Assembly (NCBI GenBank): GCA_964491805.1
Contig: CAZBGU010000001.1
Span: forward strand, 91,023-155,022
DNA: 64,000 nucleotides
Direction: 5' to 3'
Source: an uncultured Candidatus Saccharibacteria bacterium
GTDB taxonomy: Bacteria; Patescibacteriota; Minisyncoccia; Phycocordibacterales; UBA5272
Shown here: piece after piece, positions 1,546 to 51,191 of the stretch
How positions within the stretch are numbered: position 1 is the first letter of the stretch
How the letters are laid out: the number at the start of each line of letters is the position of its first letter
Notes under the pieces: generated by a model
What the model was told of the DNA's origin: nothing
Database searches by the model: none
The model's input: the letters and a program-made list of their open reading frames with translations, nothing else
Translations under genes and position numbers: made by a program

Positions 1546-4341
1546 ATGACAACACAATCCGAACAACAACTTGAAGAAACTTTGATTGAACAACTAAAAG
1601 GGTTAGGATTTTCTGTTGTCACAATTGCAGATAAAGATTCATTACAACAGAATTTAAAAGTTCAACTTGAGAAGTTTAATAAAATAACTTTTTCAGATTC
1701 TGAGTTTACAAAAATACTAAATCATTTAAATAAGGGTGACAGGTTCCAGAAAGCAAAGACACTACGTGACCGATTTGTATTAACACGAGATGACGAAAGT
1801 ACTTTTTATATACGTTTCTTTAATATGGATATGTGGTGTCAGAATGAGTATCAAGTAACCCACCAAGTTACTCAAATTGGTAAATATGAAAACCGCTACG
1901 ATGTAACCCTCCTTATTAATGGTCTTCCTCTTGTCCAGGTTGAGCTCAAGCGTCGTGGTATAGAAATGAAAGAAGCTTTTAATCAGATACAAAGATATCA
2001 CAAACATTCGTTTACTGGAACGCTCTTTGAATATATACAAATCTTCGTTATTTCTAATGGAGTAAATACAAAATACTTTTCTAATAATCCAAAGCAATCA
2101 TTCGAACAGACTTTTTACTGGACTGATAAAGAAAATAGAAAGATATCAAATCTAGATGAGTTCGCAAGTGCTTTTCTTGAGAAATGTACAGTATCAGAAA
2201 TGATTGCTGAGTATATTGTTCTTGCTGAAGCTAAACAAATACCGATGACACTTCGTCCGTATCAGTACTATGCTGTAAAAGCAATTGAGGAACGAGTAAG
2301 AGAGTCAGACAAGAATGGTTATATATGGCACACAACAGGATCAGGAAAGACACTTACTTCATTTAAAGCAAGTCAGATACTTTCACAAATACCAGAAGTT
2401 AAGAAAGTGCTTTTTGTGGTAGATAGAAAAGATTTAGATATTCAAACAACAAAAGAATTCAACTCATTCTCTGATGGTTCGGTAGACGGAACAGATAATA
2501 CAATTAGTTTGGTAAATCAACTTAAAGATACAAATAGAAAGTTAATTGTAACTACTATTCAAAAACTTGATATTGCGATTGGTAGAGATAATTACTTACA
2601 ACAGTTTGAATATCTAGCAAATGAGAAGGTTGTAGTGATATTTGATGAATGTCATAGAAGTCAGTTCGGACAGACACATGCTCGCATTAAAGCATTCTTT
2701 AAGAGGGCTCAATTATTTGGTTTTACTGGTACACCAATCTTTGCAGAAAATAATGTGGGAGGAGTAACCACGGCAGATGTGTTCAGTGAATGTCTCCATA
2801 AGTACATTATCACTAATGCTATATCTGATAATAACGTACTTGGTTTTGCTGTTGAGTATGTTGGTAAATATACACAGAAAAGTCCAGATACATTGGACGC
2901 TGATATTTTTGCTGAAACATTAGTTACAGGAATAGATACAAAAGAAGTTCTTGAAAGTTCTGATCGTCTTAATAAGATTACTGACTATGTACTTGCAGAT
3001 TGGAAGAGAAAGACAAAGCAGGGAAAGTTCAATGCTGTATTCGCTGTGTCTTCGGTTGAAGTACTTAAGAAGTATTACACTCTTTTAAAAGATAAGAAGT
3101 CAGAAGATTTTAAAATTGCTACTATTTTCACATATCAAGCAAATGAAGACGAGAGTTCAGATATTCTAGATGTCGATGTATTCGGTGAAGGGTCTACAGT
3201 TAATCAACACTCGAGAGAGTTTTTGGAAGAATGTATCAAAGATTATAATAAAGAATTTTCTACAAACTTTTCTACTGACAGATTCTATGATTATTACAAA
3301 GATTTGCAAAAGAGAATTAAGAGTAAGGAAGTAGACCTCGTTCTTGTGGTCAACATGTTCTTGACTGGTTTTGATAGTCCATTGTTAAATACTTTGTATG
3401 TAGATAAGAATTTACGTTACCACGGACTTATACAAGCGTATTCAAGAACAAATAGATTACTTAATTCTGACAAGCCACATGGTAACATTGTTTCATTTAG
3501 AAACTTGAAAGAAGCAACAGATAAAGCTCTTGCACTCTTTGGTGATGAAAATGCAAAAGAAGTTGTATTTAAGAAGCCATATGAAGACCAGAAGAAAGAG
3601 TTTGAAAATAAGTTAACAGAATTGAAGGAAAAAGTGCCAACACTTGAATCTATTGATTTGTTACAAGGTGAAGAAGAAAAAGCAGGATTTGTAAAAACAT
3701 TCCGTGACCTACTTCGTATTAAATCTTCACTCGAAACATTTGCAGAATTTTCTTTTAGCGATCTTGGGATTTCAGAACAAGAGTTTTATGACTATCAAAG
3801 TAAGTATTTGGATATTTATGAAGAACGTAAGAACTACGAAAGTGAGGCAGAATCTATATTGGATCAGATTGATTTTGAAATTGAATTAACCGTTAGAGAC
3901 GTTATTAACTTTGATTATATTATTCATTTAATTGCAGGGCTTAAGAATATTACTTCTGATACTGTTCGAGAAAAGAAGACAGAAGAAATCTTACGTCTAT
4001 TTGATAGAGATGTTCAGTTAAGAAAGAAGAAGGATCTTATCAAGAAGTTTATCGAAGAGAATTTGCCAAAGATTGTTGAGGGTGGGGATGTTGAAAAAGC
4101 TTTCGCAGATTTCTGGACAAGTGAAAGATCTGAAAAGTTAAAAGAGATTGCTATTTCTGAAAATATCTCGGTAGAGAAAATTGAAAAATTGGTTGGTGAA
4201 TATTTGTATACAGAGAGATTGCCTTCTGGGCAAGAGATTGTTGATTTGTTACCTGAAGCACCAAAGATTTTAGAAAGACAAGGAATTATAGATCGTATTA
4301 AGGGTGCAATTGAAGATGTTGTAGATATGTTTGAATGGTAG
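1546..4341 (+). CDS. hsdR: type I restriction enzyme R-subunit-like helicase-nuclease (HsdR family), orphan
   Basis: 931 aa. N-terminal nuclease motif [21 protein letters not shown]; SF2 helicase motif I TGSGKTLT and motif [10 protein letters not shown]; LRPYQ segment. No hsdM/hsdS in the window. Confidence 0.7.
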
Positions 4342-4342
4342 A

Positions 4343-5668
4343 TTAACCTAAAGTAATTACTTTGTTCTTTAAAAGAATCTTACTTTTAAAACATCCTAGT
4401 AGTTCTCTCTTTTCTATATCACTTCCTTCTTTAAGAATATATTTAGCGTAGTTACGAATATCTACGTCCTTAATCTTAATTTGCTTTGTATCTCCTAAAA
4501 CGCTCCTTTGGAAGCTCTTAATTCTCTCAACTTCAGTTCGTATCTTTTCTTTCATTCCTATCTCATCTAGGTCAATTTTGTCTAGTAATTCTTGGAACTG
4601 TTTTATGAGTTCATCTTCGTTGGTATAACCACATTTACAGTTCTTATCTTTCGACTTTGTACATGCATAATATACGTAACGATGAACATTTCCATTTTGT
4701 TGTTTCTTTATCTTTTCATCGGCTGTAATACCAGAACCACATAGCCCACAAGTCATTAATTTAGTAAAAGCAAATTCTCTGTTATTAAATTCTGTTCTTG
4801 TAACTTGTCTTGTTAATTGAGATTGCACCTGATCATAGAGTTCTTTGGTAATGAGTGGTTTATGACTACCTTTATACCAGTTACCACTTTTTCTTGGATA
4901 CTCAAATTCTCCATAGTAAAAAGTATTCTTTAAAAGTAAATTAATGTTTCCTAAACTAAGGTGTTTCTTTCCGTATGAAGTTCTAAAATTAAGATCGAAT
5001 TTAAGCCAGTGGTAAACCTTTAAGCAACTCCATTTATCATAAGCAATCTTTTCAAACATTTCCTTGATAATGTGACCTCTATCTGGATCAATATACGTCT
5101 GACATTTTCTGTCCATTCTATTTTCTTTTAAATATCCAGTAGGGGCTGGGCATGGCCATAAACCCATCTCTACTCTTGTTCTTAATCCTCGTTTTACATT
5201 TACACTTTTGTTATCATTCTCTAGTTTTGCTTGAGAACATAAAATCATTAGTAAAAACTTTTCATTAGGTGAATTACTAAATGTTTGTCCATATGTTCGT
5301 ATTTGAAAAAGTAATTGTTGATCCATAAGATCTACTATTGAACCTAAGTCACCTGCATTTCTACTAATTCTTGAAGCGTCCCATGCTAAGATTCCATTAA
5401 ACCTTCCTCTTTTAATATCTTCTAGTATTTCTTTAAAAACTGGTCGTTGTCCTGAATCTTTAGCAGAATGAGATTCTCGTCTAATATCTACTATTTCAAG
5501 ACCTTCTCTTTCTGCTAATCTAAGCATTTCTTTAATTTGAGAATCAATAGATAAGATTTGTCTTTCTTCTGATTCAGTACTTTTTCTACTATACAAAACG
5601 TACTTCATTTTTTGAACTGGTAAAGCCGTCATATTACCCATAAGCCCAAATGTTTGTTGTTGTTCCAT
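4343..5668 (-). CDS. large serine recombinase (resolvase/invertase-type integrase)
   Basis: 441 aa. N-terminal resolvase catalytic region with YSRKST Ser motif, recombinase domain, C-terminal Cys-rich zinc-ribbon (CGLCGSG...YYAC). Confidence 0.85.
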   Translation of the reverse strand: MEQQQTFGLMGNMTALPVQKMKYVLYSRKSTESEERQILSIDSQIKEMLRLAEREGLEIVDIRRESHSAKDSGQRPVFKEILEDIKRGRFNGILAWDASRISRNAGDLGSIVDLMDQQLLFQIRTYGQTFSNSPNEKFLLMILCSQAKLENDNKSVNVKRGLRTRVEMGLWPCPAPTGYLKENRMDRKCQTYIDPDRGHIIKEMFEKIAYDKWSCLKVYHWLKFDLNFRTSYGKKHLSLGNINLLLKNTFYYGEFEYPRKSGNWYKGSHKPLITKELYDQVQSQLTRQVTRTEFNNREFAFTKLMTCGLCGSGITADEKIKKQQNGNVHRYVYYACTKSKDKNCKCGYTNEDELIKQFQELLDKIDLDEIGMKEKIRTEVERIKSFQRSVLGDTKQIKIKDVDIRNYAKYILKEGSDIEKRELLGCFKSKILLKNKVITLG

Positions 5669-6006
5669 ATTATATTAATGACAGAACCAAAAACCCTGCA
5701 TAGTCTATGCAGAACTAAAAAAGGCGACATTGTGAGAGATTTATTTGTCTATAAAAATGCCTTAGCAAAAGACCTTTTATGCGATATAATAGATCAATTA
5801 ATACAAGAGTATTAAGAAGAAAAATTTGCAGTAGCCTAACCCTTTAGTTCCTAGACCTAGAGGTATGGTGAAAAAACCAGTCGAGGATAAACAACCCATC
5901 ATGTGGGATTTACCTTGACTGGTCGTATCTGGAAACGGATATGGATGGCGCAAGCTGTCACTCACGTGGTGGGCTTTTTGTGTCTTAAAAAACCAGTCAA
6001 AAAAAT

Positions 6007-6942
6007 ATGTATAACGAAAATAAATTAGGTACGTTAAAGAAAGTTGAATTAAGAGAAGCCTGGAAACATGAAGCTAATGATTTCACTAAGTGGTTAGCTC
6101 TGGAAGAAAACTTAAGACTTCTTGGTGATGAAATTGGTTTTGATATTAAACTAATACAAACAGAAGCAAGCGTAGGAAGTTTTAATGTAGACATTCTAGC
6201 CGAAGAAGAAAATACTGGTCATAAAATAATTATTGAAAATCAACTCGAAGTAACCAACCATGATCATTTAGGTAAACTTGTTACGTACGCTTCAGGATAT
6301 GATGCGAAAGTAATAGTGTGGACAGTTAAAGATGTTAGAGAAGAACATCGACAAGCGATAGACTGGTTAAATGAACATACTGATGAAGATATAGAATTTT
6401 ATTTAATACGAATTGAATTATGGCAAATTGGAGATTCAGCCTTTGCTCCAAAATTTGAAGTAATATCAAAACCAAATGACTGGACTAAAGCAGTAAGAAA
6501 TTCCACTGATATAGCTGAACTTACAGACACTAAAGTTAAGCAGTTAGAATTTTGGAACTTACTTAAAGATTATGCAAAACAAAGTTACCCGAAAATAAGG
6601 TTACAGAAAACATATCCAAAGCATTGGACTAATATAAGTATTGGTAATAGTGGTGCATATATTTCTCTTACGATAAACTCAAGAGAAAATCTTTTTGGTA
6701 CAGAGTTATATGTTCCAGATAACAAGGAATTATATAAACAACTAGCAGATCATAAAGATGAAATCGAGAATGAGTTAGGAGAACAAGTTGAATGGATGGA
6801 GTTACAAGAAAAGAAAGCTAGTAGAATAAAAGTCTCTAGATCTGGTAACTTTGAGCAGACCGAAAAGTGGGAAGAATATTTTGAATGGATGCTTAAAGAA
6901 ACTGAGAAGTTTCAAAGAGTATTTCCTAGGTATTTGAAGTAG
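6007..6942 (+). CDS. hypothetical protein, putative DUF4268-like family (family assignment from memory)
   Basis: 311 aa. Internal motif ENQLEVTNHDHLGKLVTY. Soluble protein of a kind often found in defence/mobile islands. Confidence 0.45.
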   Translation: MYNENKLGTLKKVELREAWKHEANDFTKWLALEENLRLLGDEIGFDIKLIQTEASVGSFNVDILAEEENTGHKIIIENQLEVTNHDHLGKLVTYASGYDAKVIVWTVKDVREEHRQAIDWLNEHTDEDIEFYLIRIELWQIGDSAFAPKFEVISKPNDWTKAVRNSTDIAELTDTKVKQLEFWNLLKDYAKQSYPKIRLQKTYPKHWTNISIGNSGAYISLTINSRENLFGTELYVPDNKELYKQLADHKDEIENELGEQVEWMELQEKKASRIKVSRSGNFEQTEKWEEYFEWMLKETEKFQRVFPRYLK

Positions 6943-7345
6943 GTTTTGTTTCCTTCTTTTTGTCCTGCACCCAACCTTCAATCCACTTATCTACTTCTTT
7001 TTCAGCTTTCAACATTTCTAGTTTATGTTCTTCTTCGAGTAGGTTTACTTCTCTTCTAATGATGAATGGTTTCCTATACTCTCTGTGTCTATGACTTAAC
7101 CAATAGGTAGTAGCTCTCATTTCTCCTTTTTTGATTCCATTTAAGATATTACTTTCGGCATGATCATTAACAAAATCAATTCCGTTATCAAGACACTCTT
7201 TTACTGCTAAAGAAAAATCAATATCTTCATCTAACCACCTGTAGTATGTATTTCTTGATATTCCAACTTTCTCGCAGGCATGTTGGATGATAGGAGTTTT
7301 CATAAGCTCCTCAAGGAACTTTGTCTTTACTCTATGCTTCTTCAT
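6926..7345 (-). CDS. phage-related helix-turn-helix protein (terminase small subunit-like)
   Basis: 139 aa. HTH segment GISRNTYYRWL; basic/acidic C-terminus. Adjacent to the ParB-methylase gene. Confidence 0.4.
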   Translation of the reverse strand: MKKHRVKTKFLEELMKTPIIQHACEKVGISRNTYYRWLDEDIDFSLAVKECLDNGIDFVNDHAESNILNGIKKGEMRATTYWLSHRHREYRKPFIIRREVNLLEEEHKLEMLKAEKEVDKWIEGWVQDKKKETKPTSNT

Positions 7346-8607
7346 AAATGTTCAACTACTGGTTTTCTGCCTGTCAGCCTAAAATAGCGGAGCGAAATTA
7401 AATCACAAAATGCTGGCTCTAACTCACAGCCGTATACCTTCCGACCAAGGGCTTCAGCACATAAAATGCTACTACCTGATCCAAGGAAGCTATCTAGAAT
7501 AATATCATTTATCTTGGTACATCTTTTGATTGCTTTCTCATGAAGTTGTGGAGGTTTTGATGTTGCATGTTCATAATCTTTTGATGATAATCTTTTTTCC
7601 ATCCAAATATCATTTATGTCATCAAATAACTGATTTCCAGTGCCTACTTCCTTATTCATGACTTCGTTAAGACTAGTTACCGATTCTGTAAGATATGGTT
7701 TACCTCGAGTACCATATACCACAGGTTCGTATGCTTTATTAAAAGCAACTTTAGGAACAGGGTTCTGTGAATTTTTTATCCATAAGCATACACGTTTATT
7801 ATTAATCCCAAGGGAACGATATAGTTCTTGTACTACTCCAATGTAAACTTGGTCACACCAATAGAATACATGAGTGTCTTTGTTTGATACCGATAAAGCA
7901 CATTCCATGCTCTTTTTTAGAAATGTTTTATATTCATCAAAAGTACGAGTATCGTTAACATTTCCTCCGTAGTCTTTTTTACCACCAATTCCACCGTCAT
8001 AGTTAATGTTTATGTTGTACACGGGATCAGAGTAAATCATTGACACTTTCTCTTTACCAAGTAGTCTTTTTAAAACATTAGGATCAGTAGAATCTCCACA
8101 GATAACTTTATGATTACCGAGGTGAATAATGTCGCCAAGCTTAGTCTTTGGTTTCTTTATCTTCTTAAGTTCTTCTTCGACGTTAAAATCATCATCGACA
8201 ACGTCTTTTTCTTCGTCTAACATTTCGCTAAGTTCAATATCATTGAACCCTGCGAAGGAGAGGGTTTCAACATCAAAGGACTTTAGTAACTCAAAATCCC
8301 AGTCACCACCAAGTTTGTTAGAGGCGATTAGATACTCTTTAGATTCTTTTTCTGTTAGTTTGCGGTTAGGTACACGAACGTCAATTAATTCTCCACCACG
8401 ACTAAGAAGTTGTAATGCTTTAATACGTTGATGACCTGCTAGTATTTTTCCATCTAAATCAATAGCAGGGACTTCTACTAGATTGAATTTCTTTAGACTT
8501 CTTGTAAGATCCGACATTTGCTTGTCGGTAATGACACGAGGATTTACATCCTGAGGAATAAGGTTGTTAACTGTTTTTTGGACAGTGGACCAGTTTAGTT
8601 TTAGCAT
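7342..8607 (-). CDS. ParB-like nuclease domain fused to DNA (N6-adenine/N4-cytosine) methyltransferase
   Basis: 421 aa. N-terminal ParB/Srx-like region (GHQRIKA). C-terminal MTase motif IV SDPVYN (DPPY-type) and motif I FLGSGSS. Architecture typical of phage orphan methylases. Confidence 0.8.
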   Translation of the reverse strand: MLKLNWSTVQKTVNNLIPQDVNPRVITDKQMSDLTRSLKKFNLVEVPAIDLDGKILAGHQRIKALQLLSRGGELIDVRVPNRKLTEKESKEYLIASNKLGGDWDFELLKSFDVETLSFAGFNDIELSEMLDEEKDVVDDDFNVEEELKKIKKPKTKLGDIIHLGNHKVICGDSTDPNVLKRLLGKEKVSMIYSDPVYNININYDGGIGGKKDYGGNVNDTRTFDEYKTFLKKSMECALSVSNKDTHVFYWCDQVYIGVVQELYRSLGINNKRVCLWIKNSQNPVPKVAFNKAYEPVVYGTRGKPYLTESVTSLNEVMNKEVGTGNQLFDDINDIWMEKRLSSKDYEHATSKPPQLHEKAIKRCTKINDIILDSFLGSGSSILCAEALGRKVYGCELEPAFCDLISLRYFRLTGRKPVVEHL

Positions 8608-34916: not shown

Positions 34917-34989
34917 GCCACTTTAGCTCAGTTGGTAGAGCAACGGTTTTGTAAACCGTAGGTCCACAGTTCGAATCTGTGAAGTGGCT
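34917..34989 (+). tRNA. tRNA-Thr (anticodon UGU)
   Basis: Manual cloverleaf: acceptor GCCACTT/AAGTGGC; D-stem GCTC/GAGC; anticodon stem ACGGT/ACCGT with loop TTTGTAA; T-arm CACAG-TTCGAAT-CTGTG. No encoded CCA. Confidence 0.88.
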
Positions 34990-45707: not shown

Positions 45708-45774
45708 CCGCAGTGTTGAAAATGGCAATAATGAAAGTATATATATTTGCTGTATAAAATTAGAATGTGAAAAG

Positions 45775-45795
45775 GCGCGCTCGCGCGCGCCTTAC
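45775..45795 (-). terminator. GC hairpin terminator for the minus-strand GC-rich gene
   Basis: GGCGCGC tcgc GCGCGCC. On the minus strand it is followed by TTTT. Confidence 0.5.
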
Positions 45796-45813
45796 CCTTT
45801 CGGGGTTTCGGGC

Positions 45814-46230
45814 TTACTGCCACGTCTGGTCAAACAGCACCTTGGTCGGTTGCCCGGGGTCGATCTTTTTCTTCCGGGCTTTGATCCCTTGATCGATGTA
45901 GTCGACGAACGATTTCGCATGATCGCTGTTGCATGGGGAGAATTCCCTGCCCCCAGAGCTCAAATAATGGGTCTGGGTACGCGGATCGTATGTAACGTCC
46001 ACCTTGCCCACGATCGGAACTTCCGTGACCCGTGAAAGCGACACTCGGCCGATCTTGCCGACACGGATCACCAGTCGGCTGCTGGTATTTGCCAGCCAGT
46101 TGAGGAACTTGCCGGCATCTTGCTCTGTGAAGGGTGGCTCTTGCTCTGGGGTCCTTGTTGTACGTTCTGCAACGATTGCCATGGTCACTCTTTCTATCTG
46201 TGTGTGGTCTTGGTTTGGTATCGCCTGCAA
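45814..46230 (-). CDS. hypothetical protein encoded in an anomalously GC-rich patch
   Basis: 138 aa. Local GC clearly above the flanks. Long ORFs also exist on the + strand, so coding strand is tentative. Confidence 0.35.
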   Translation of the reverse strand: MQAIPNQDHTQIERVTMAIVAERTTRTPEQEPPFTEQDAGKFLNWLANTSSRLVIRVGKIGRVSLSRVTEVPIVGKVDVTYDPRTQTHYLSSGGREFSPCNSDHAKSFVDYIDQGIKARKKKIDPGQPTKVLFDQTWQ

Positions 46231-48548: not shown

Positions 48549-49550
48549 GTGACGTCTACGTTATCAAGCTCAATTCTTGAACGTGGCATCGCTCGTTTTG
48601 TGCTTGTATTTTTCTATACGCTACTTGCTACTTTCTACACGCTGGCATTCTGTGGTAGAATACTCTTCATTATGCAAGAACAGCACGTAACCAACAATGA
48701 ATTACCGGGGATAGTAACGGCAACAGCTCATGAATCTGTACAGTCTGAGTCTAGTCTTCTTCATGTTCATGAAGAGATACCAACAATTGCGGCCCCAACC
48801 ATCGGTAGTGTTGGTCCTTTTACGATTGCCACATCATCAGTCACCATTCTCTTCATTACACTTCTTGTTGTTGCACTGTGTGTTGCGGTATCACGTGCAA
48901 AGCTTATCCCGGGAAAGTTCCAGAGTCTCATGGAAGTATTATATGAAATGATCTCTGGTTTTATTACGTCAATTGTTGGCACAAAAGAAAAAGCAGAAGT
49001 AATCATTCCATACGTTGGAGCGCTTATGGTGTATCTTCTCGTCGCGAATTTGCTTCCGATGATGCCTGGCATTTCTGGAGTCTCAGTACTTATTGATGGC
49101 GAGCATGTACCACTTTTCCGTGGAGCTACAACTGATTTTAATACAACGTTTGGTCTCGCACTTGCAGTCGTGGTTACAATGCAAATTGTTGGTATGAGGG
49201 AACAGGGAGTGTTCGGATATCTGTCGCATTTCATTCAGATTAAGCAAGTTGTTAAAGGGTTTAGTAAAGGCCTTGGTGAAGGGTCTGTCGCCGTTATCGG
49301 ATTTTTGGTTGGTCTTATCGAGATTATTTCAGAGCTTGCTAAGATGCTCTCACTCTCTCTTCGTCTCTTTGGTAATCTCTTTGCACACGAAGTGCTTACT
49401 GTGATTTTGCTTGGGGCTTTTGCTTTTGGAGTACCTGCCATTTGGATGGGGATGGGGGTTCTTGTGGGCGTTGTTCAGTCTATTGTATTTGTCGCATTGG
49501 TGACAGTGTACTATTCGCTCGTGCTTAAGAAAGAGGGTGGCCATCACTAG
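48549..49550 (+). CDS. atpB: F0F1 ATP synthase subunit a
   Basis: LSLSLRLFGNLFAHEVL with the essential Arg. ORF is long at 333 aa; an alternative start is at 48672. Confidence 0.85.
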   Translation: MTSTLSSSILERGIARFVLVFFYTLLATFYTLAFCGRILFIMQEQHVTNNELPGIVTATAHESVQSESSLLHVHEEIPTIAAPTIGSVGPFTIATSSVTILFITLLVVALCVAVSRAKLIPGKFQSLMEVLYEMISGFITSIVGTKEKAEVIIPYVGALMVYLLVANLLPMMPGISGVSVLIDGEHVPLFRGATTDFNTTFGLALAVVVTMQIVGMREQGVFGYLSHFIQIKQVVKGFSKGLGEGSVAVIGFLVGLIEIISELAKMLSLSLRLFGNLFAHEVLTVILLGAFAFGVPAIWMGMGVLVGVVQSIVFVALVTVYYSLVLKKEGGHH

Positions 49551-49634
49551 CGTTTCTACAAGCACTTCGTCGGAGTGCTTTACTTTTTATACTATTTATT
49601 GTATTGTGTAGATCTCTAATCATTTGGAGCCACC

Positions 49635-49964
49635 ATGAAAAAAGGTGTACAGGAGAGAGAGCGGCAGGTGCTTCTTGCATCGGCCATAAACTTCTTTGTT
49701 GTTCGCTCAGGGCGCACCAAGCAGTTTCTCGCCAACAGTGCAGGCATTTGTCCGTGTAAGTTCTCGATGATCACGAATGCGCGGCGTGATCCATCTGAGG
49801 ATGAGCTCTGCGCGATTGCACGTGCGTTTGGAGTCAGCGTGAGCGAGATTGAATCGAAGGCCCAAGACCTATCGAATGACGTCGGATTCGCCGGGGCTGT
49901 TCGGGGGTATATCGCCAAGTGCAATGAGGGCAAGGTGTCTCTATCTCGCATTGGTAGGCGATAG
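49635..49964 (+). CDS. XRE-family helix-turn-helix regulator (GC-rich, likely acquired)
   Basis: 109 aa. HTH FLANSAGICPCKFSMI...LCAIARAFGVSVSEI. GC well above the genome background. Confidence 0.45.
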   Translation: MKKGVQERERQVLLASAINFFVVRSGRTKQFLANSAGICPCKFSMITNARRDPSEDELCAIARAFGVSVSEIESKAQDLSNDVGFAGAVRGYIAKCNEGKVSLSRIGRR

Positions 49965-50054
49965 CCTCGGACCAAAGACCTTTCCTTGCAAATGGCATGG
50001 ATACGTGTTACTATTTCTAGTGTTCACGTGGAGGTCAGCTCGAGCGAGCGATTC

Positions 50055-50086
50055 CGGCCCGGCTGCAGAGCCGGGCCGTTTTTTTT
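50055..50086 (+). terminator. strong rho-independent terminator
   Basis: CGGCCCGGCT gcag AGCCGGGCCG, a 10-bp stem followed by TTTTTTTT. Confidence 0.8.
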
Positions 50087-50283
50087 ATACACATACCAGC
50101 GTGCTTTATGTCTTCACACAGTTTTATTCTGTGGATGTTTTGTTTTATAAAGTTTTATAAATAATAAGGTTTTATAAATAAGAATAATTAGTCTTTAATA
50201 ACTTCTTCCTTTTCATATAAGGCTTTTTTGTTATTGTACATCTGCAAAATGGGGTAAAGGGAAAATGTGGGGGTGGGGGGGGC

Positions 50284-50311
50284 TTGACAAACTCTGTGAA
50301 TTTGCTATACT
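50284..50311 (+). promoter_or_regulatory. near-consensus sigma70-type promoter with extended -10
   Basis: TTGACA - 16 nt - TGcTATACT. Preceded by the G-run GGGGGTGGGGGGGG. Confidence 0.55.
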
Positions 50312-50318
50312 GGTACTT

Positions 50319-50689
50319 GTCAGTTCGAGACCGAAAGATCAGAGCAGACTGCAGGCAATGGTTGAGCGCCTGCAAAACGAAAAAGCTCACCCCTACCTCC
50401 TAACCTGATCGCATGTAATCGCCTAGGTTTCACAGCCCTAGCCAGCAATGCCAGGGGTGGCAAAGCTGAGTGATTATAACTCAAATTAGAGTCATCAAAA
50501 CCTTGGGGTCGGCGACGGGCACTCGAGAAGCCTGTTTACCGAGATACTGTGAGTGTCGAAAATCGCGGCAAACCTGACCGCGTCGAGCTGAAGGCTCGCA
50601 AAAGTCGTGGCAACCTGGCCACGCCGAGCTGAAAGCTCGCCCAACGGCCTGGTTGGGTGCTCATGCATCCCCCCAGGCCTCTCTTTTTG
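50319..50689 (+). ncRNA. candidate ~370-nt structured non-coding RNA of unknown family
   Basis: Bounded by the promoter and an intrinsic terminator (GGCCTGG...CCAGGCC + TCTCTTTTT). GC-rich with no convincing ORF. Two tandem modules, each a pair of hairpins, show compensatory changes (CGCGG/CCGCG vs CGTGG/CCACG; CGAGC-TGAAG-GCTCG vs CGAGC-TGAAA-GCTCG). Confidence 0.45.
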
Positions 50690-50972
50690 GATTTATAGAA
50701 TAGTTTCTGATTGCTTCACTTTATGGGTGAGCTTTTTTTAATTTTATACTTAATCGTGCGTGGATCTGGTCATTACTTTTGTTTGTGTTGATTATAATTT
50801 TACTCCTGCTGTCATGTTCTTCCTCTAGATCGCTTTTACTATTTCTGCTATACTCTACCCATAAGCCTTTCTTGAGGCGAATTTTTATTGAAATGATGAT
50901 AGGCAGAGATTCTTTGCATACATATTAGCATCAATCTAGTGCCTGTTGTCCTAAATCTAACAATCTATCATT

Positions 50973-51191
50973 ATGACCCCAGAAGCAGCAATTTATATCG
51001 CAAAAGGAATGTGTATTCTAGCCATGGTTGGAACAGCCGTCGGACAAGGATATCTCGTTGGTAAGACTATGGAAGCGATTGGACGTAATCCAGACGTAGA
51101 AGGATCACTCTTCTCAAAGATGATCATTGGTGTTGCTATGACAGAAACAACAGCGATCTTCGCACTTGTTGCATTCTTCCTTCTTAAGTAG
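50973..51191 (+). CDS. atpE: F0F1 ATP synthase subunit c
   Basis: 72 aa. Two TM hairpin with the conserved carboxylate helix. Confidence 0.9.
   Translation: MTPEAAIYIAKGMCILAMVGTAVGQGYLVGKTMEAIGRNPDVEGSLFSKMIIGVAMTETTAIFALVAFFLLK

Follow-up and report, generated by a model that had tools for sequence, protein, structure and literature searches.

A strain-variable candidate noncoding RNA gene in the atpB–atpE spacer of an uncultured Patescibacteria bacterium

Introduction

The type III antitoxin RNAs ToxI, CptI and TenpI consist of short tandem structured repeats of ~36–45 nt with A-rich junctions. The phage P4 CI RNA, the P1/P7 C4 RNA and plasmid copy-control RNAs are immunity or incompatibility determinants of mobile elements, in which a repressor-type gene lies beside a strongly expressed noncoding RNA and the RNA varies sharply between similar genomes. 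Screens of AT-rich genomes by GC content and length have revealed large or medium-sized GC-rich intergenic RNAs, each motif being established from numerous homologues that show covariation (PMC8632094, PMC8723152). TIGR systems need an adjacent Tas (Nop-domain) protein and many array units with variable dual spacers; in each unit, two variable spacers are flanked by conserved box C/D-like motifs (PMC12045711). Descriptions of noncoding RNAs from Patescibacteria are very scarce, and the tiny genomes of these bacteria have little room for useless DNA. Here we analyzed a 64-kb stretch of contig CAZBGU010000001.1 (the window, whose positions are used throughout) from an uncultured ultra-small Patescibacteria bacterium; its segment 50284–50739, between the genes atpB and atpE, is probably an independent noncoding RNA gene, unclassified and restricted to one species. 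A second allele of the locus, L105, was found on a contig of another sample.

The RNA resembles type III antitoxin RNAs in its strong promoter, its A-rich junctions, its tandem repeats located between promoter and terminator (50560–50641; one unit in L105) and the Rho-independent terminator right after the repeats. Unlike those antitoxins, it is followed after the terminator by atpE with a promoter of its own instead of a toxin gene, and it has ~245 nt of non-repeat RNA before the repeats, only one or two units, and no match to any model; no ToxN/AbiQ/CptN/TenpN-type endoribonuclease was found immediately downstream or in the 12 open reading frames (ORFs) scanned with PADLOC. Its likeness to the P4 CI, P1/P7 C4 and copy-control RNAs lies in the repressor-type gene beside it and in the sharp difference between alleles, which fits a specificity determinant, whereas no phage, plasmid or replication genes surround it, and neither sequence or Rfam similarity nor a target site was found. 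The RNAs from GC/length screens have the same long GC-rich region with many hairpins, promoter and terminator of their own and lack of an ORF (PMC8632094, PMC8723152), but the window RNA is represented by two alleles in one species. As in TIGR arrays, there are tandem short structured units, and the host group, the candidate phyla radiation (CPR), is known to carry TIGR (PMC12045711); the flanking genes, in contrast, are atpB, an XRE-type ORF and atpE, none of them Tas, and the units have no spacer-like variable blocks. The element is outside every described family. A first-pass annotation, made from the sequence alone, had suggested an undescribed RNA family; no known family matches, but with two alleles in one species the element is a candidate, not a family.

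A predicted transcription unit with its own promoter and two terminators

The RNA candidate is encoded on the plus strand, the same strand as atpE, directly upstream of this gene (atpB, 48549–49550; atpE, 50973–51191). A sigma-70-type promoter, TTGACA-16-TGcTATACT, occupies 50284–50311 (TTGACA, 50284–50289; 16-nt spacer with TG at 50303–50304; TATACT, 50306–50311) and matches the consensus at 11 of 12 positions with an extended –10; the predicted transcription start is at ~50318. The near-perfect promoter that had been reported is therefore present, and it is the sole site with at least 11/12 identity to the sigma-70 consensus on both strands of the entire window. In L105, it is 94% conserved. 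The G5TG8 run that had been noticed 5′ of the –35 box (50269–50282) was found as well, and in fact closes a series of four plus-strand G-runs (50251–50254, 50259–50261, 50269–50273 and 50275–50282) immediately upstream of this box. Their arrangement is compatible with a G-quadruplex, and the length of the last run varies among assemblies (eight G in the window, seven in L004 and six in L105).

At the 3′ end, the described bulged GGCCUGG/CCAGGCC hairpin with its T-run forms a plus-strand intrinsic terminator, T1 (50646–50688; hairpin 50646–50679; –25.2 kcal/mol), with 7 + 6 bp separated by an internal loop (inner 6-bp stem), followed by UCUCUUUUU; a G–U pair of the window is G–C in L105. A second plus-strand intrinsic terminator, T2 (50713–50739; 8 bp with one bulge, then U7), had been overlooked in the first pass. 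The 3′ arm of T2 is also complementary to 50380–50395 (16 nt, 94%) and to 50632–50643 (12 nt, 92%). Because there are two terminators, the predicted transcript may be ~370 nt long, ending at T1, or ~420 nt long, ending at T2.

The longest ORFs in the RNA region are of 35–57 aa, on both strands, and none of them keeps its frame or start between the window and L105. Gene prediction in two public assemblies had picked up one minus-strand ORF (57 aa), which starts within the terminator stem; a search with its product recovered only itself among 5.8 billion proteins and only low-complexity noise among 1.84 billion cluster representatives. The indels between the alleles include 2, 11 and 41 nt, which are not multiples of three, and together with the absence of a common reading frame they argue for the exclusion of coding. 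The earlier statement that no plausible ORF exists is supported by this comparison, since no frame is conserved in the second allele. The segment 50284–50739 thus has its own promoter, an intrinsic terminator and no conserved ORF, as expected for an independent noncoding RNA gene.

Divergence of the RNA interior between two alleles

L105 was reached via P0001, a 97% variant of the protein encoded by the neighboring regulator ORF, and spans the whole locus. Comparison with the window revealed a backbone identity of ~99.5% and an identity of ~50–80% in the RNA interior. Outside the RNA, the identity was 99.8% at the atpB 3′ end, 96.7% in the regulator ORF, 97.8–100% in the AT-rich spacer and 99.4% in the atpE promoter/leader. 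Within the RNA, it was 79% in the 5′ hairpins, 52% in the core (50375–50505), 75% in the region of the helix with the ACUCGAGAA loop, and 96% both in module 2 with T1 (50612–50690) and in T2, and module 1 is missing from L105 (41-nt gap). The core value comes from a MAFFT alignment that left CCUGAUCG, common to both alleles, unaligned, and the true identity is therefore somewhat above 52%. The changes between the alleles are not adenine-specific.

Since the divergence of the RNA is approximately two orders of magnitude above that of the backbone, it cannot be explained by neutral drift in place; either alleles were exchanged with a diverged lineage, or selection was diversifying, or both. Look-ups of the exact atpB, atpE and atpF proteins recovered no third allele and showed that most contigs of the species break just after atpB, which fits strain heterogeneity at the locus. 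Three contigs that carry the exact atpB protein (L117, L118 and L119) end 50–100 nt after the gene.

Helices and tandem modules

The GC content is 0.53–0.585 in the RNA region versus 0.40 in the window. The first plus-strand hairpin (50319–50349), compared by eye on the two-allele alignment, has an inner GAAA-capped stem. It is followed by a 7-bp hairpin, UGCAGGC/GCCUGCA (50350–50374, plus strand; arms 50350–50356 and 50368–50374; –10.8 kcal/mol), which had been correctly placed upstream of the modules; its pair 50356/50368 shows a compensatory change, from C–G in the window to U–A in L105. The hypervariable central domain on the same strand, the core, contains a C/U-rich stretch with CCUCC (50390–50412), a hairpin CUAGG/CCUAG (50423–50441) in which the pair 50425/50439 is A–U in the window and G–C in L105, again a compensatory change, a conserved hairpin CAGC..UGCCA-GGGG-UGGCA..GCUG (50443–50468), and a hairpin (50480–50494) in the window allele only. 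In the following region (50509–50557, plus strand), two-allele comparison revealed a helix around the invariant 9-nt loop ACUCGAGAA (50521–50529) and then a hairpin GAUACU-GUG-AGUGUC (50543–50557). Among the 11 pairs of the ACUCGAGAA-loop helix, four have one-sided changes that keep pairing and one is broken (U·U) in L105.

Two plus-strand modules lie between this region and T1: module 1 (50560–50600; CGCGG-9 nt-CCGCG, then CGAGC-UGAAG-GCUCG) and module 2 (50601–50641; CGUGG-8 nt-CCACG, then CGAGC-UGAAA-GCUCG), the latter directly before the terminator. They constitute a 41-nt tandem duplication, 86% identical over 29 nt, and are joined by the A-rich linkers AAAAU and AAAAG. The stems and loops read exactly as first described, and so do the two tandem two-hairpin modules, but the period is 41 nt and not ~36 nt; each two-hairpin unit spans ~35 nt. 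The term covarying, used for the modules in the first pass, is appropriate insofar as the sequences are real and contain one compensatory pair, whereas the modules themselves represent a duplication with strain-variable copy number. That L105 has one module only is explained most simply by unequal crossing-over of two modules. The CGAGCUGAAAGCUCG hairpin of the modules also occurs in at least six tandem repeats of 68–70 nt in a high-GC viral contig, IMGVR_UViG_3300030606_000028 (L046 5760–5980 and L066 1–240); these repeats are probably unrelated to the modules.

Searches for known families and homologues

Analysis of the whole window with Rfam 15 at gathering thresholds detected only a LOOT RNA (5833–5959) and a tRNA-Thr, and a scan of 49540–50950 at E ≤ 10 detected nothing within 50284–50721; the nearest match was a chance-level hit to 6A at 50722–50767 (E 2.3). 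None of the Rfam 15 families reached its gathering threshold in the element; these families include RNase P, tmRNA, signal recognition particle (SRP) RNA, 6S, HEARO, ROOL, GOLLD, OLE, raiA, CRISPR repeats and riboswitches. A search of 16 related loci at the same thresholds likewise yielded nothing for the element. ARAGORN identified no tmRNA in the window, only the tRNA-Thr at 34917. The cmscan check that had been recommended therefore yielded no significant match, and the absence of RNase P, tmRNA and SRP hallmarks, first judged by eye, agrees with both programs.

The recommended nhmmer search, performed with one- and two-allele profiles on the fetched loci and the window, did not extend the RNA beyond its own species, which was the only one recovered. 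A blastn search with "distant" settings against phages and plasmids gave no match, nor did two metagenome pattern scans, one with the module pattern and one with a degenerate promoter pattern. Three of four viral-contig pattern scans were empty, and the 16-mer scan returned 59 stretches, among them the 68–70-nt tandem repeat of the viral contig mentioned above, all of which we took as chance or unrelated matches. In the GTDB genome collection, which was searched around atpB only and without a search for the RNA itself, and in the closest public assemblies, none of ~40 atpB–atpE spacers of other species (41 GTDB atpB loci plus the assemblies) has this RNA. Protein scans covered approximately half of the window ORFs with Pfam and 12 ORFs with PADLOC. 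Retrons, diversity-generating retroelements and integron attC sites were considered as well; where a system requires a partner protein, there was neither an adjacent gene for one nor a candidate among the scanned ORFs.

The neighboring regulator gene and the spacer in relatives

The host fragment has a GC content of ~40% over the window, and its closest atpB relatives are metagenome-assembled genomes labelled variously Paceibacterota, Nomurabacteria, Parcubacteria and Saccharibacteria. On the plus strand, atpB and its terminator are followed by an ORF of 109 aa, a terminator (50055–50086), an AT-rich spacer, the four G-runs, the promoter at 50284–50311, the GC-rich ORF-less stretch, the two terminators and the atpE promoter/leader; atpE is then followed by atpF, atpH, atpA, atpG and atpD. 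The 109-aa ORF (49635–49964, plus strand; GC 0.55), to which the strong terminator at 50055–50086 belongs, is of the XRE-type helix-turn-helix class: it matched HTH_3 and HTH_31 weakly (E ~5e-4, which misses the Pfam cut-offs) and PHROG and PADLOC repressor models at E ~6e-4. Its only relatives were P0001 in the protein collection and weak matches to phage repressors. The ORF and P0001 differ by 11 nucleotide substitutions but only three amino acid changes (8 synonymous versus 3 non-synonymous), and this pattern indicates that the ORF is a real gene under purifying selection.

The AT-rich spacer contains three copies of a motif with the palindrome TTTATAAA (50144–50182; repeat families D1, D6 and I2), which are possible operator sites. 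In L008, L014 and L021, strong promoters of the same spacer have a similar word, TTATAAAATAAGG, located 15–20 nt 5′ of their –35 box.

Comparison of the atpB–atpE spacer among relatives (L005–L045 and L121–L125) revealed lengths of 116–2302 nt, many being only 116–210 nt, and unrelated cargo, namely purB (L015, L025 and L036), small membrane ORFs (L121 and L125), an XRE-like ORF (L125, 3124–3504) and other ORFs. The spacer is thus, as far as these sequences indicate, an insertion hotspot. The XRE-like ORF of L125, located in the same place, could not be aligned to the window ORF, and we do not claim homology between them. Approximately 60 nt upstream of atpE, comprising a promoter and a leader hairpin, are conserved in most relatives. 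In the window, this element occupies 50846–50890, where the atpE promoter (TGCTATACT) is followed after a few bases by a short hairpin and AUUUUUAUUGA; the arrangement was seen in ~40 related loci (for example at L005 5070, L010 5099 and L036 6395). The leader stems covary across relatives (GCCUUU..GAGGC, GCCG..GGC and GCCCCGUGGGGC), and the element resembles a promoter-proximal terminator or a 5′ stabilizer hairpin.

In L005, whose atpB is 84% identical, a promoter that has 89% identity with the one at 50284 over 28 nt lies 30 nt after atpB and drives a different RNA-like unit of ~110 nt; the 50284 promoter therefore seems older than its present transcribed sequence. The units of L005 and L010 occupy the same place in the atpB–atpE spacer as the window RNA and likewise end in their own terminators. 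The L005 unit has the 11-mer GCCAGCAAUGC in common with the window RNA, but in a different predicted structural context. Homology of the window RNA to these two units was rejected, since nhmmer and blastn were negative and promoter similarity was restricted to L005. GC-rich, sRNA-like units of ~110 nt were found just after atpB in three loci (L005 4941–5052, L010 4962–5074 and L021 5105–5226), all of them equipped with a consensus promoter and a separate terminator and without an Rfam match; those of L005 and L010 have in common a 58-nt 5′ part that includes a hairpin with two compensatory pairs (CGGGC/GCUCG versus CAAGC/GCUUG). Two other loci (L008 ~5010–5135 and L014 ~4995–5110) contain a strong promoter followed by a long imperfect hairpin of ~125 nt (GUAGUCACAGCGAUAU...AUAUCGCUGUGACUA), which is conserved between both and precedes ORFs that look mutually unrelated.

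Functional RNA, acquired remnant and other explanations

Our preferred explanation, held tentatively and with somewhat less than even confidence, is a functional noncoding RNA that acts in trans and is part of an accessory cassette of regulator and RNA. The RNA of 50284–50739 would act in trans, with its conserved hairpins (the 5′ hairpins, the CAGC/UGCCA hairpin, the ACUCGAGAA-loop helix, the A-rich-linked modules and the terminator) serving as a scaffold for stability or protein binding, and with the fast-changing, largely single-stranded C/U-rich core (50375–50505) providing strain-specific pairing or recognition; CCUCC in the core of the window allele could be an anti-Shine-Dalgarno-like word. 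The 109-aa helix-turn-helix neighbor may control the RNA promoter, possibly through the TTTATAAA repeats, and regulator and RNA would then be the two parts of a small accessory cassette for immunity, addiction or riboregulation. At this one locus, the best promoter of the 64 kb coincides with a double terminator and with a drastic sequence change between strains that are otherwise ~99.5% identical, a pattern that is the signature expected from diversifying selection or frequent allele exchange, as in systems of defense, immunity and incompatibility. A real and functional RNA would offer a first entry to strain specificity based on RNA in these episymbionts.

Comparative support for an RNA structure is thin. 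The minimum free energy z-score of the single window sequence was –3.68 on the plus strand and –1.97 on the minus strand, that of the L105 RNA was –4.83, and the two-allele consensus fold compared with column shuffles gave z –6.3 on the plus strand and –4.6 on the reverse strand. RNAalifold on both alleles predicted 87 pairs with two compensatory changes. Among 64 hand-curated local pairs, 56 were invariant, 5 had one-sided changes and were still paired, 2 were compensatory and 1 was broken; 99.2% of the curated cells were paired versus 29–44% after the partners were slid by 1–3 columns. Invariant loop blocks are embedded in sequence that is ~50% divergent.

Several observations weigh against a functional, trans-acting RNA. 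The curated helices had been picked for presence in both alleles, the observed covariation was reached by 120 of 500 shuffles, two alleles of one species giving no statistical power, and for the core, the global folds predicted from window and L105 disagree. Individual features are not always shared: the hairpin at 50319–50349 is perfect in L105 but interrupted by A·A and C·A mismatches in the window allele, stem 1 of the one L105 module, CGCGG paired with CCACG, contains a C·A mismatch, and the CCUCC word belongs to the window allele only and is missing in L105. Complementarity to possible targets within the window was at chance level (14 11-mers versus 13 expected), and no partner protein was identified, either adjacent or among the scanned ORFs, which make up approximately half of the window set. 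That the helix-turn-helix protein acts on the RNA promoter is purely inferred. Finally, the RNA region has its GC-richness in common with the adjacent, probably acquired, regulator ORF (0.55), so that GC-richness may reflect foreign origin rather than RNA structure.

The last point leads to the main rival, a doubtful but serious one, namely that the transcript is a non-functional remnant of GC-rich DNA that was acquired with the regulator gene and now lies behind an older promoter. It would be, for example, a decayed gene or a mobile-element fragment, its hairpins would derive from GC-rich repeats and a recent 41-nt duplication, and the differences between the alleles would represent mosaic recombination with a diverged lineage, not selection. 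This explanation accounts for the orphan status of the RNA in every collection queried and agrees with the equally GC-rich regulator ORF, with a further GC-rich orphan ORF at 45814–46185, with the unrelated cargo that relatives carry in this insertion hotspot, with the clustering of the substitutions within the regulator ORF, as from mosaic recombination, and with the variable module number and mismatched stems. On the other hand, the frameshifting indels and the spurious ORFs without protein similarity give no hint that a gene once existed here, a single broken pair stands against two compensatory changes and five that keep pairing, loop blocks have stayed invariant within ~50% divergent sequence, and the best promoter of the window with a double terminator would be expensive to keep for junk. 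If the locus is nevertheless a decaying acquired fragment, it shows that, for genomes into which GC-richer DNA is taken up, a structured RNA should not be concluded from a GC-rich intergenic region and hairpins alone.

Within the preferred explanation of a trans-acting RNA, a more specific and improbable version is that the XRE-type regulator and the RNA form an undescribed RNA-based specificity cassette of CPR/Patescibacteria (immunity, addiction or anti-phage). The conserved hairpins would be its scaffold, the rapidly diversifying core would be the specificity determinant, kept polymorphic in the population by diversifying selection, and the module number and the poly-G run would tune dosage.

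A role as cis-acting leader of the atpEFHAGD operon, in which T1 and T2 would be read through under some condition, with alternative pairings as anti-terminators, is distinctly improbable. The RNA is on the same strand directly upstream of atpE, and the complementarity of the T2 3′ arm to 50380–50395 and 50632–50643 makes alternative structures possible, but the L105 insertion breaks the 16-nt complementarity and both terminators are strong. The leader is unlikely because a conserved promoter and leader hairpin belonging to atpE itself (50846–50890) are present in ~40 relatives, most of which lack the RNA, many with a spacer of only 116–210 nt; a conserved association of the RNA with the atp operon was not found across ~40 loci of other species.

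No more credit can be given to an RNA of a repeat system with a partner encoded elsewhere, either antitoxin-like (type III; ToxI, CptI, TenpI) or a guide or array RNA (TIGR tigRNA, CRISPR-like, omega or bridge RNA), which we rank slightly lower than the leader. The tandem 41-nt units before a terminator and behind a strong promoter, the A-rich linkers, the variable segments between conserved scaffold blocks and the occurrence of TIGR systems in CPR bacteria (PMC12045711) would suit such a system. In contrast, no toxin, Cas, Tas/Nop, TnpB, IscB or IS110 gene is adjacent, the neighbors being atpE and the helix-turn-helix ORF, the scans of approximately half of the window ORFs with Pfam and of 12 ORFs with PADLOC revealed no ToxN-type toxin or RNA-guided effector, no CRISPR repeat or other Rfam model matches, and the one or two units are near-identical without spacers. 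That the region encodes one or more small proteins is extremely improbable: the short ORFs of both strands, even the minus-strand one called in two assemblies, keep neither frame nor start between the alleles, and the 57-aa product, which begins inside the terminator stem, has no relatives apart from low-complexity noise.

Other features of the window

The orphan ORF at 45814–46185 (123 aa, minus strand), for which no Pfam, PADLOC or PHROG match was found, lies in a GC-rich region (45774–46230; 0.54–0.58) next to a terminator with a perfect GC hairpin, and has the appearance of a further acquired insert. The LOOT RNA (RF03000, 87.5 bits; 5833–5959, plus strand) is located directly upstream of a DUF4268 gene (6007–6942) that matches the PADLOC candidate defense family PDC-S11 (E 7e-125), within an island (genes 1546–8607) that also encodes a type I restriction R subunit, a large serine recombinase and a DNA methylase.

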